DNA of 64,000 nt, taken from the NCBI GenBank assembly GCA_964620935.1, contig CAZUHW010000004.1, forward strand, positions 14,362 through 78,361, given 5' to 3'. Positions 38,867-61,500 of the stretch are shown one piece after another. The stretch is from an uncultured Dehalococcoidales bacterium (GTDB taxonomy: Bacteria > Chloroflexota > Dehalococcoidia > Lucifugimonadales > Lucifugimonadaceae). Both the position numbers and the translations under genes were made by a program. Under the pieces are notes generated by a model, which had not been told where the DNA came from, did not search any database, and was given only the letters and a program-made list of their open reading frames with translations. Every line of letters begins with the position of its first letter. Position 1 is the first letter of the stretch.

Positions 38867-38969
38867 CTTGTTATTGCAAAAGATCAAAAGGAATAAATAA
38901 AGTAGATAATATTCACTGGGGAATGATTATGATAAGAAAGGCATGAATTTATTCGTGTTGATACGGAAT

Positions 38970-39004
38970 CAGACCCTTAATTTTTTAAGGGTCTGAAATT
39001 TTTT
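38970..39004 (+). terminator. intrinsic terminator after the enolase-family gene
   Basis: 9-11 bp stem CAGACCCTTAA/TTAAGGGTCTG with a T-rich loop, followed by AAATTTTTT. Confidence 0.65.
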
Positions 39005-39013
39005 AAATCACTA

Positions 39014-39042
39014 TTGACATCATATACGTAACCGTGTAATAT
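39014..39042 (+). promoter_or_regulatory. near-consensus sigma-70 promoter, unit 1
   Basis: TTGACA at 39014-39019, a 17-bp spacer, and TAATAT at 39037-39042. Confidence 0.7.
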
Positions 39043-39049
39043 CTATTTC

Positions 39050-39176
39050 AACGTTAGACGTAACGAGTGGGAAATTGGAAGGGTGAACTCAAGGGACGCT
39101 GCATCTGGAAGAAGAACCACTATTCCGTATCGGGAGGATAGCTCTCACTCAGCAATGAGTGAGAGTTCTTTCTTTT
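39050..39176 (+). ncRNA. unclassified structured RNA, copy 1 (sRNA or cis-regulatory leader)
   Basis: The 5' end is inferred about 7-8 nt after the -10 hexamer. About 49% G+C (hand count) against an AT-rich background. Helices: 39052-56/39061-65, 39066-70/39117-21 and 39120-25/39136-41. Terminator: 10-bp stem 39142-51/39156-65 with a GCAA loop, then UUCUUUCUUUU. No credible ORF. Confidence 0.65.
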
Positions 39177-39230
39177 GTGCAACAAAAATACACGGAAAAG
39201 TTTAAGGAAATACACGGAAAAATTTGTCTA

Positions 39231-39259
39231 TTGACATCATATACGTAACCGTGTAATAT
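39231..39259 (+). promoter_or_regulatory. near-consensus sigma-70 promoter, unit 2
   Basis: TTGACA at 39231-39236, a 17-bp spacer, and TAATAT at 39254-39259. Confidence 0.7.
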
Positions 39260-39266
39260 CTATTTC

Positions 39267-39394
39267 AACGTTAGACGTAACGAGTGGGAAATTGGAAGGG
39301 TGAACTCAAGGGACGCTGCATCTGGAAGAAGAACCACTATTCCGTATCGGGAGGATAGCTCTCACTCAGCAATGAGTGAGAGTTCTTTCTTTTT
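39267..39394 (+). ncRNA. unclassified structured RNA, copy 2
   Basis: Identical to copy 1. The terminator stem is 39359-68/39373-82 and the U-tract runs to 39394, ending 27 nt before the ParB-like ATG. Confidence 0.65.
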
Positions 39395-39420
39395 GTATCA
39401 ATTCTTTATAATGTTTGTTA

Positions 39421-39978
39421 ATGAAAGAAATTCAAGAATTTAAAAACATTTCTCTAGAAAAAATTAATATATCTACTACTCATGAAGATTTAATAGATGA
39501 GGCAGATATAGATAATATTGTTGCTGATATAAAAGAAAAAGGTTTATCTAGGCCTATAATTGTTTCATTAGAAGACGATAAATACTCACTTATGCTTGGA
39601 ACTAAAAGACTTATGGCTGCAAAAAAAGTTAGTAGCAGTTCAATTTTTTGCGGTGTAATTAATGGAAAAGTAGATAAGTCCGAAGTGGCAGCAATTGCTT
39701 TATGTTACACCAGTCTGGAAGATATGCTAAACGATGAAGATAGAACATTAGCTATACATTATCTCAATAAAAACTTCAAAGGTGATTTAAACAAAATGTC
39801 ATCTGTTACAAATTTAAGTACTGAAGAAATAAAATCTTATTTAAATTTTTATGAAGATGCAGAAAAAGCAAAAAGTTATTTAAACAGTATTAATGCAAAA
39901 GACTTTGAAAAAAAATTAAGTTCTTTAGCCCCAGAAGAACTAGGCGACTTAATTAAATTATTAGAAAAATTAAACTAA
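39421..39978 (+). CDS. orphan ParB/Srx-like N-terminal-domain protein
   Basis: The ORF opens at TTG 39415 and the ATG at 39421 is more likely. ISLEKINIS...IVADIKEKGLSRPIIVSLEDDKYSLMLGTKRLMAAKKV follows the ParB N-domain pattern (GxxR box retained as GTKR). Helical C-terminal half. No Shine-Dalgarno site seen. Confidence 0.6.
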   Translation: MKEIQEFKNISLEKINISTTHEDLIDEADIDNIVADIKEKGLSRPIIVSLEDDKYSLMLGTKRLMAAKKVSSSSIFCGVINGKVDKSEVAAIALCYTSLEDMLNDEDRTLAIHYLNKNFKGDLNKMSSVTNLSTEEIKSYLNFYEDAEKAKSYLNSINAKDFEKKLSSLAPEELGDLIKLLEKLN

Positions 39979-39990
39979 AGTATTTCTATA

Positions 39991-40083
39991 TTATCTTCCG
40001 CCTGTAGCTACAGCAAAAACAACAATAATTGCCACTATCAAACAAGCAATAAGAAACGGTGGGCTAGTTAAAAACTTTATCAT
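39991..40083 (-). CDS. possible 30-aa single-TM micro-protein
   Basis: Not in the ORF track. ATG at 40083 with AAAGGA 7 nt upstream, 24 nt downstream of the bcp stop. Peptide MIKFLTSPPFLIACLIVAIIVVFAVATGGR. Confidence 0.25.
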   Translation of the reverse strand: MIKFLTSPPFLIACLIVAIIVVFAVATGGR

Positions 40084-56305: not shown

Positions 56306-56334
56306 ATATTATAACTTGATATAGATCATGTCAA
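56306..56334 (-). promoter_or_regulatory. candidate clpC promoter TTGACA-17-TAATAT
   Basis: On the minus strand, TTGACA is at 56334-56329, followed by a 17-bp spacer and TAATAT at 56311-56306, about 55 nt upstream of the clpC start. Confidence 0.55.
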
Positions 56335-61170: not shown

Positions 61171-61500
61171 TTAGAGTTTTTTATAATCTTCTCTTGGCGG
61201 AGAAAATATATCCAGAGCAAGTGAATTGGAATCATTTCCATGAGCACTATGGGGAACATTAGGAGGTATTAAGTAGTGATCACCTTCTTTCAATAGCCTT
61301 TCTTCGCCATCAACTATCAATTTAAATGAGCCAGATAAAACTCTACCTGCTTGCTCATTTGGGTGGGTATGAGTCGGAACTTCAGCGTGAGGAGATATAT
61401 CAACTAGCATCATCATTATTTTTTCTCCCCACATTATCCTAACTTTAATTCCAGGGTGAATCTCTTTAGGTTCTAGGTCATTTTGATCAAAAAAAGGCAT
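61171..61500 (-). CDS. cupin-domain protein
   Basis: 109 aa with HTHPNEQAG...GDHYLIPPNVPH, the two cupin motifs. Confidence 0.7.
   Translation of the reverse strand: MPFFDQNDLEPKEIHPGIKVRIMWGEKIMMMLVDISPHAEVPTHTHPNEQAGRVLSGSFKLIVDGEERLLKEGDHYLIPPNVPHSAHGNDSNSLALDIFSPPREDYKKL

Follow-up and report, generated by a model that had tools for sequence, protein, structure and literature searches.

Within the 64,000-nucleotide (nt) stretch of contig CAZUHW010000004.1 from an uncultured Dehalococcoidales bacterium analysed here (the window), we describe a structured non-coding element, called R, which occurs as two head-to-tail copies ahead of a gene for a ParB-like protein and represents a real family of structured RNAs from marine Dehalococcoidia that had not been catalogued before. 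Our preferred interpretation, to which we assign a probability of roughly 0.45, is that R stands for a new family of small RNA (sRNA) genes that are transcribed independently and present as sibling copies, whose product probably acts by base pairing and whose first candidate partner is a second conserved element, U, lying just upstream. The family appears to be restricted to a lineage of low-G+C marine Dehalococcoidia. We read R as a small RNA gene in the first place, with a leaky terminator through which the gene downstream is fed as well; a role as a cis-acting attenuator leader is a serious rival.

The two copies form an exact direct repeat of 166 nt, positions 39011-39176 being identical to 39228-39393 at a period of 217 nt (blastn and nhmmer), and neither of these programs nor a covariance model built for R (model R1) detected further copies in the window. 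They occupy a gap of 548 nt (38867-39414), the largest stretch of the window without an open reading frame (ORF) of at least 110 amino acids (aa), where the median gap measures 63 nt. The G+C content of positions 39050-39149 is 0.49, compared with 0.318 for the whole window. An earlier, sequence-only reading of this DNA had reported the base-for-base duplication, its location in the largest non-coding gap and, in each copy, a promoter, a G+C-rich body and a terminator stem capped by GCAA, all of which we recovered; its remark that clpC is preceded by a promoter with the same hexamers and 17-nt spacing was likewise borne out, at 56334 on the minus strand. The parts of R are listed below, with the sub-features of copy 2 lying at +217 and being identical across the repeat.

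39014-39042, plus strand: promoter TTGACA-17-TAATAT of R copy 1 (sequence match)
39049-39176, plus strand: R copy 1, about 125 nt (model R1, 150.4 bits)
39052-39056 with 39061-39065, plus strand: helix P1, GACG loop, supported by covariation
39066-39070 with 39117-39121, plus strand: helix P2, supported by covariation
39081-39085 with 39102-39106, plus strand: helix P3, the best-covarying helix, with a 16-nt loop containing the invariant AAGGGACGCUG
39122-39131, plus strand: single-stranded linker AUUCCGUAUC, invariant, between P2 and the 3' hairpin, extending as AUUCCGUAUC(GG)
39132-39138 with 39167-39173, plus strand: GGGAGGA paired with UCUUUCU, an extension of the terminator stem
39142-39151 with 39156-39165, plus strand: terminator stem with GCAA loop
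39140-39167 and 39357-39384, plus strand: terminators of the two copies, 12 pairs and a GCAA loop, then CTTTCTTTT
39231-39259, plus strand: promoter TTGACA-17-TAATAT of R copy 2 (sequence match)
39266-39393, plus strand: R copy 2 (model R1, 150.4 bits)

Searches for homologues of the ParB-like protein and DNA-pattern scans revealed one or two copies of R in the corresponding position of about 45 related contigs, and it was present in every contig that reaches the region. These contigs derive from independent Tara, Joint Genome Institute (JGI) and European Nucleotide Archive (ENA) ocean metagenomes and from five GTDB species, are labelled Dehalococcoidia or Chloroflexota, and all have a G+C content of about 30%. 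In a first clade the R body hardly varies even as the identity of the ParB-like protein declines to 42-50%. The architecture of R is kept, with different stem sequences, in a second clade (L025, L031/L036, L058, L063/L064 and L065, where L numbers denote contigs or loci), in which the ParB-like protein is 32-41% identical: P1 changes from CGUUA-GACG-UAACG to UGUGU-GACG-ACACA or UGCUU-GACG-AAGCA, P2 from AGUGG/CCACU to GGAG/CUCC, and P3 from GGGUG/CAUCU to CUCUC/GAGAG or CUCUG/CAGAG. R is among the most conserved sequences of its neighbourhood, more so than the adjacent proteins, and this conservation, together with the near-consensus promoter and the two copies present in many lineages, points to an RNA that is probably abundant and under strong selection.

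For a quantitative view of the fold we realigned 53 instances of R (46 of them distinct) to model R1 and counted pairs. In the resulting structure of five helices, pairing holds in 99.4% of cells, and both sides have changed in 14 of 32 pairs. Not one of 500 shuffles came up to the observed percentage of paired cells, the numbers of pairs and of cells with both sides changed, or the covariation score, and the count of extra pair types was matched or exceeded in 73 of the 500; in a control with the partners slid by 1-3 columns, pairing fell to 45-57%. The terminator stem is 100% paired, with compensatory changes in four of its ten pairs. RNAalifold run on a MAFFT alignment failed to find P2 and P3, owing to a one-column shift of clade 2 in that alignment, and realignment to the covariance model recovered both helices. 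Without its terminator the R body shows no advantage in folding over shuffled sequence (z = +0.42), so the evidence for the structure comes from covariation and not from thermodynamics. Two of the helices drawn by hand in the sequence-only reading, CGUUA/UAACG (P1) and AGUGG/CCACU (P2), are thus those supported by covariation; a third, CUAUUC/GGAUAG, does not hold up, as only 3 base pairs (bp) of it are universal and its 3' side varies without compensation, and P3, the pairing of GGGAGGA with the U-tract and element U had been missed. That reading had named conservation and covariation in homologous loci as a check, and both were found there. Its interpretation is partly supported, being largely right and incomplete: the structured RNA unit with its promoter and terminator and the tandem duplication stand.

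The 3' end of R is informative as to which molecule is under selection. GGGAGGA looks like a Shine-Dalgarno sequence and is invariant, yet it has no ORF behind it, and the best explanation is that it provides the 5' strand of a helix prolonging the terminator stem. The helix that it forms with the U-tract is 99.6% paired, the C residues that interrupt the U-tract stand opposite G residues of GGGAGGA in every lineage, and in one lineage (three sequences) a change of A96 to G is matched by an opposing change of U to C. Selection here acts on the terminated RNA molecule itself, and we take it as evidence that the short R RNA is a functional product rather than a by-product of attenuation.

Signals for independent transcription accompany each copy. 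Judged from sequence alone, the promoter TTGACA-17-TAATAT lies 6-7 nt before P1, so that a start at the 5' end of the RNA is expected, and the Rho-independent terminator, a stem of 10-12 bp followed by a U-tract, fits a discrete 3' end. Ahead of every copy in both clades the -35 and -10 boxes are retained at the same spacing (as TTGACA-17-TATTCT or TATAGT in clade 2), and even upstream tandem copies, which are followed only by another R promoter, keep both promoter and terminator.

Tandem pairs of R were found in at least 12 independent assemblies of relatives (L062, L012, L045/L050, L016, L030, L044, L049, L060, L008, L032, L052 and L029), in several of which the copies differ from each other and the spacers are distinct. 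This excludes an artefact as the origin of the arrangement, and the sequence-only reading was correct in taking the duplication to be genuine. Over the RNA, the identity of copy 1 to copy 2 is 98% in L062, the closest relative of the window (ParB-like protein 96% identical, same period of 217/218 nt), 96% in L045, and 87-91% in L030, L044 and L060. The upstream copies of L016, L030, L044, L049 and L060 possess their own covarying terminator, AUCCUACUUAG.AAUAAGUAGGAU, and in the older pairs upstream copies are 94% alike across genomes as against 89% to their own downstream siblings; being closer to each other than to these siblings, they indicate that the duplication is old and that both copies have been maintained. 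The duplication is therefore old in part of the clade, and the identical pair of the window reflects a recent duplication or gene conversion, although its perfect identity could owe something to consensus calling. Near-identical strains differ in copy number, with one copy in L004 and L011 and two in L045 and L012. Unless some pairs were collapsed during assembly, this speaks against a strictly required copy number, and the dosage-sensitive function suggested in the sequence-only reading is conjectural. Many contigs of the lineage end inside or next to R (L003, L006, L010, L013, L015, L019, L027, L034, L035, L038, L043, L051, L054 and L061), consistent with a tandem repeat that breaks short-read assemblies.

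No Rfam family matches the element. A scan of the whole window with the 4227 models of Rfam 15 at gathering scores returned tRNA only, a scan of the gap alone at E<=10 gave a best match of 19.9 bits against a threshold of 49 with every match at E>1, and the most divergent homologous locus, L063 of clade 2, produced nothing significant. This agrees with the sequence-only reading, which had been unable to place R in any RNA family. Our literature search found no paper on small RNAs of this lineage. A type III toxin-antitoxin RNA (ToxI-like) was also considered and rejected: the unit is 166-217 nt long with its own promoter, in place of repeats of about 34-36 nt, many loci are single-copy, and the downstream protein is of the ParB/Noc helix-turn-helix type and no endoribonuclease toxin. 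A role of this protein in defence or as a toxin was rejected too, as PADLOC gave no meaningful match for it.

Just upstream of the first R promoter lies the second conserved structured non-coding element, U, with the following parts.

38912-39009, plus strand: element U
38941-38948 with 38951-38958, plus strand: hairpin H1, compensatory change in all 8 pairs
38958-38969, plus strand: linker UUGAUACGGAAU, invariant and single-stranded
38960-38969, plus strand: GATACGGAAT within the linker, the exact reverse complement of ATTCCGTATC in R
38970-38979 with 38986-38995, plus strand: hairpin H2, then AAAUUUUUU; 4 pairs changed on both sides

A dedicated covariance model (R2) scores the U of the window at 94.5 bits, and across loci it yields 75-95 bits on the strand of R versus 24-33 bits on the reverse. 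Every locus with enough upstream sequence contains exactly one U, which in all of them immediately precedes the first copy of R; it travels with R and not with the upstream gene, which is of the enolase family, luciferase-like or GMP-reductase-like depending on the lineage. Twelve of its 18 predicted pairs are kept through changes on both sides, its G-U pairs fit the plus strand only, and no Rfam family matched U when the gap was scanned at E<=10. In every locus the linker UUGAUACGGAAU is complementary to the invariant AUUCCGUAUCGG of R, with 10-13 contiguous pairs in 27 of 27 locus/copy combinations, and the changes seen in U (C for U facing a G, G for A facing a U, an additional A facing a U) preserve the pairing or lengthen it. 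No other target for AUUCCGUAUC was found within the window. Pairs of an sRNA and a sponge (anti-sRNA) are known in GcvB-SroC and in RyhB/RybB with the 3'ETS of leuZ. Like these, U and R carry 10-13 nt of conserved complementarity in accessible single-stranded regions; unlike these, they are encoded side by side as one conserved module, and their interaction is a predicted one.

Judged from the sequence, a near-consensus promoter of the sigma-70 type would start transcription just before P1, and the RNA folds into P1, an arm made of P2, an internal loop and P3, and finally the long 3' hairpin; the 3' end of the terminated molecule would be base-paired through GGGAGGA on the C-containing U-tract. 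We propose that the invariant single-stranded AUUCCGUAUC(GG), situated between the structured halves, would serve as a base-pairing seed. Its first candidate partner would be the U linker UUGAUACGGAAU, and through such pairing one RNA or the other would be titrated or destabilised. The tandem pair is a sibling-sRNA arrangement that is ancient in certain lineages, whereas in that of the window it has been homogenised or has arisen by a new duplication. Lastly, the terminator is probably leaky, and read-through may supply or add to the transcription of the gene downstream, namely the ParB-like gene in the window and a Thr/Ser dehydratase gene in clade 2.

Trans-acting sRNAs in sibling or tandem copies include PrrF1/PrrF2 of Pseudomonas aeruginosa, OmrA/OmrB of E. 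coli and AbcR1/AbcR2 of Rhizobiales. R resembles them in having two near-identical genes head to tail, each with its own promoter and Rho-independent terminator, in carrying a conserved single-stranded segment between structured modules, and in a copy number that varies among relatives. It differs from them in that it has no sequence or Rfam relationship to them and that a gene always lies close behind it on the same strand, and its body is far more structured and conserved than that of a typical sRNA made up of a seed and a terminator.

Several points weigh against an independently transcribed, base-pairing sRNA, and they are best considered together. The promoter, 3' end and stability of the RNA, as well as the function of R as a whole, are properties that we infer. 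In the proposed pairing with U the R side never varies, and hence there is no double compensatory change; inverted 10-mers within 500 nt of each other are not rare in the A+T-rich window (123 overlapping matches in 64 kb, or roughly 90 distinct repeats, about 15 of them having at least 4 G/C); and the energies of the U-R duplex are no better than with shuffled R. For these three reasons we treat base pairing between U and R as a hypothesis, albeit a well-motivated one. U itself has no consistently recognisable promoter, and several lineages lack a U-tract after H2. Further points concern the position of R with respect to the next gene. A same-strand ORF follows R in every locus that extends past it; the clade-1 gene begins 21-47 nt after the promoter-plus-RNA unit of about 165 nt, and in clade 2 the start codon of the dehydratase gene lies about 12-17 nt after the U-tract, or 17-20 nt when counted from the terminator, with its Shine-Dalgarno sequence abutting the terminator. 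This leaves no space for a promoter in clade 2, so that the dehydratase gene must be transcribed through R. Such an arrangement is that of an attenuating leader, and given how closely the downstream gene follows, R may also serve as a leader and may not be the self-contained gene of the sequence-only reading. Finally, covarying stems with invariant loops (GACG and AAGGGACGCUG) and an invariant 3' tail resemble an aptamer.

The main rival, which follows from these last points, is that R is a cis-acting attenuator leader, either an orphan riboswitch or a leader binding a protein or an RNA, in which P1-P3 would sense an effector and set the degree of read-through into the ParB-like gene in clade 1 and into the dehydratase and ParB-like genes in clade 2; in one version of it U could be the effector. 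We take this seriously and yet hold it to be less likely than an sRNA gene. R does share with terminating riboswitch leaders a covarying multi-stem domain directly before an intrinsic terminator and an ORF, invariant loops and junctions, and a high G+C content in an A+T-rich genome. The start of the downstream gene in the window also speaks for this rival, as the ParB-like gene has no Shine-Dalgarno sequence and a -10 box of its own is weakly supported.

39407-39412, plus strand: TATAAT, 8 nt before the ATG of the ParB-like gene, no Shine-Dalgarno sequence; possible own promoter and leaderless mRNA

A -10-like box occurs 6-10 nt before this ATG in most, not all, clade-1 loci. The background is high, with TANNNT at that distance in 12 of 55 ORFs of the window, and a Shine-Dalgarno sequence is recognisable in 14 of the 55 long ORFs. 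The ParB-like gene thus possibly has its own promoter at TATAAT and a leaderless mRNA, the evidence for this being weak.

Against an attenuator stands the lack of a conserved switch: no mutually exclusive alternative to the terminator is conserved or covarying across both clades. The antiterminator candidates GAGUGGG/CUCACUC, CCACU/AGUGG and the P3 3' arm with CUCUC each occur in one clade only and without covariation, and in a search that also covered GGGAG/CUCUC and the P2 strands with the terminator arms, none was conserved with covariation. A G to A change in P2 (L030_491, L044_274) is compensated in P2 and not in the terminator arm, and in clade 2 the P2 5' strand bears no resemblance to the terminator 3' arm. 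Unlike riboswitch leaders, every tandem copy of R, upstream ones included, has retained complete consensus promoter and terminator sequences through a long evolutionary history, and the selection of its U-tract for pairing with GGGAGGA is a property of the terminated RNA. The downstream genes, for a DNA-binding ParB/Noc-like protein and for a pyridoxal phosphate (PLP)-dependent dehydratase, are functionally unrelated and do not form a metabolically coherent set. The distribution, with its five GTDB species, is very narrow, and a dehydratase gene whose product is 53% identical exists in another Chloroflexi contig (L066/L067) without R, for which reason a fixed association of R with dehydratase orthologues was also rejected.

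Doubtful in our view, and bolder, is the proposal that U and R form an undescribed two-RNA module in which pairing of the linkers gates the terminator or the free R, or else that R is a new class of orphan riboswitch. If true, the module would control a ParB/Noc-like DNA-binding protein (and the dehydratase in clade 2) in streamlined marine Dehalococcoidia, and would be an attenuator gated by RNA instead of a metabolite.

An improbable alternative is that R is a protein-sequestering RNA of the CsrB/RsmZ type, titrating a translational repressor such as CsrA by means of the loop that carries GGA and a tail resembling a Shine-Dalgarno sequence. R is purine-rich, has a strong terminator and multiple siblings like CsrB, RsmY and RsmZ, and sibling copies are common among such RNAs, as in RsmX/Y/Z. 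Its 93-nt body holds six GGA motifs, which places it in the top 0.3% of 93-nt windows in this stretch, with one invariant GGA in the P3 hairpin loop and another in GGGAGGA about 40 nt downstream. These two are the only invariant ones, since the other four of the six are not conserved (UUGGAAG becomes UUAGAAA and CUGGAAG becomes CUGAAAG), and GGGAGGA is more convincingly accounted for by its pairing with the U-tract in the extended 3' hairpin. There is no Rfam match to this group, and tblastn with CsrA and Hfq gave no match in about 480 kb of contig sequence, which amounts to no complete genome.

Slightly less probable still is that the conserved sequences act at the DNA level, GATACGGAAT and ATTCCGTATC being inverted operator sites, for example for the ParB/Noc-like protein. 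The two do form an inverted DNA repeat flanking the promoter of R, CCGTATCGG is nearly palindromic, and the adjacent gene encodes a helix-turn-helix protein of the ParB type. Five helices of R and two of U, on the other hand, keep their pairing via compensatory or G-U changes that are meaningful only in plus-strand RNA; in the U-side variant GAUGCGGAA (L058 and L063) the pairing is kept only as a G-U pair, and a DNA operator leaves promoter, terminator and invariant loops unexplained. The least tenable explanation, of very small probability, is that the duplication is an assembly artefact or that the region encodes a small protein: the copies of the window are 100% identical, a result that assembly software can generate, R is where many related contigs break off, and ORFs of 40 and 47 aa overlap the units, but the independent tandem pairs with differing copies and distinct spacers described above and the matching arrangement in L062 speak against the former, and the latter was rejected because these ORFs are not kept in frame across relatives and their only ATG, in the terminator loop, is lost in GCAAUAAG variants.

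If R is a small RNA gene, as we prefer to think, it is possibly the first sRNA described for this group, and if it is an attenuator it would represent a new cis-regulatory class. The marine Dehalococcoidia of this low-G+C lineage have not been cultured, and they are widespread across the ocean metagenomes of Tara and JGI covered here. Model R1 provides a new covariance model for the annotation of ocean metagenomes and metatranscriptomes, U and R offer a concrete RNA-RNA pair open to testing, and R could explain why many contigs of the lineage end at this locus.

The neighbourhood of R is conserved in gene order. Upstream lie a gene for a luciferase-like monooxygenase and sometimes one of the enolase family, followed by the non-coding gap and the ParB-like gene, and synteny continues beyond with AhpC (opposite strand), sulfatase, RDD, HpcH and then the suf genes. 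Further features of the window and of clade 2 are as follows.

39421-39978, plus strand: ParB/Noc-type gene, 185 aa, with a ParB N-terminal domain and a helix-turn-helix region
39186-39203 and 39208-39225, plus strand: a pair of direct repeats, AAATACACGGAAAA(G/A)TTT, within the spacer that separates R copy 1 from copy 2
L036 3269-5023 (minus strand), L063 3904-5648 and L065 3896-5651: dehydratase gene of clade 2, between R and the ParB-like gene

The ParB-like protein matches Pfam PF02195 and the NCBIfam models parB_part and nucleoid_noc, and aligns to residues 52-164 of the Spo0J structure 4umk of H. pylori. It has few homologues, and its gene is found downstream of R wherever the locus is long enough; in clade 2 the gene for the PLP-dependent Thr/Ser dehydratase stands between R and it. 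The clade-2 protein shows a weak match to SbnI, a ParB-fold serine kinase and regulator, of 31 bits against a cut-off of 350, which probably indicates a shared domain only.

The AAATACACGGAAAA(G/A)TTT repeats occur twice in L062 and once each in L012 and L045 and are absent from the other tandem loci. Being confined to the sub-lineage of the window, they are not a core part of the element, and a function of their TACACGG as a core operator was rejected on the same grounds; they possibly represent an operator specific to this lineage or the scar of a duplication. The spacer of each R promoter contains CCGTGTA, whose reverse complement is TACACGG.

Outside the lineage, four matches to a 19-mer (two in Vulcanimicrobiota, the others in 'Chitinophaga' and Spirochaetota) were dismissed as chance similarities in unrelated sequence. 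Those to ACTATTCCGTATCGGGAGG at L018 4292-4310 and L021 799-817 belong to two Vulcanimicrobiota metagenome-assembled genomes and fall in a mutually similar region unlike R. A single match in a viral contig was set aside as well, this sequence being G+C-rich and alike in the searched pattern only, and model R1 does not match it.

The runner-up among the gaps of the window, 61171-61499, contains a minus-strand ORF of 109 aa, read from the translation alone and just below the 110-aa cut-off, and is probably not a non-coding region. In the same translation a possible cupin-like HxH...H pattern can be seen. Finally, a hydrophobic ORF of 30 aa, MIKFLTSPPFLIACLIVAIIVVFAVATGGR, lies at 39991-40083 on the minus strand, 25 nt after AhpC on the same strand, and a Shine-Dalgarno sequence, AAAGGA, precedes it by 8 nt. 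NCBIfam gave no match for it; several related contigs have a called ORF of 30-35 aa at this position, and from these sequence features it is probably a real small membrane protein.

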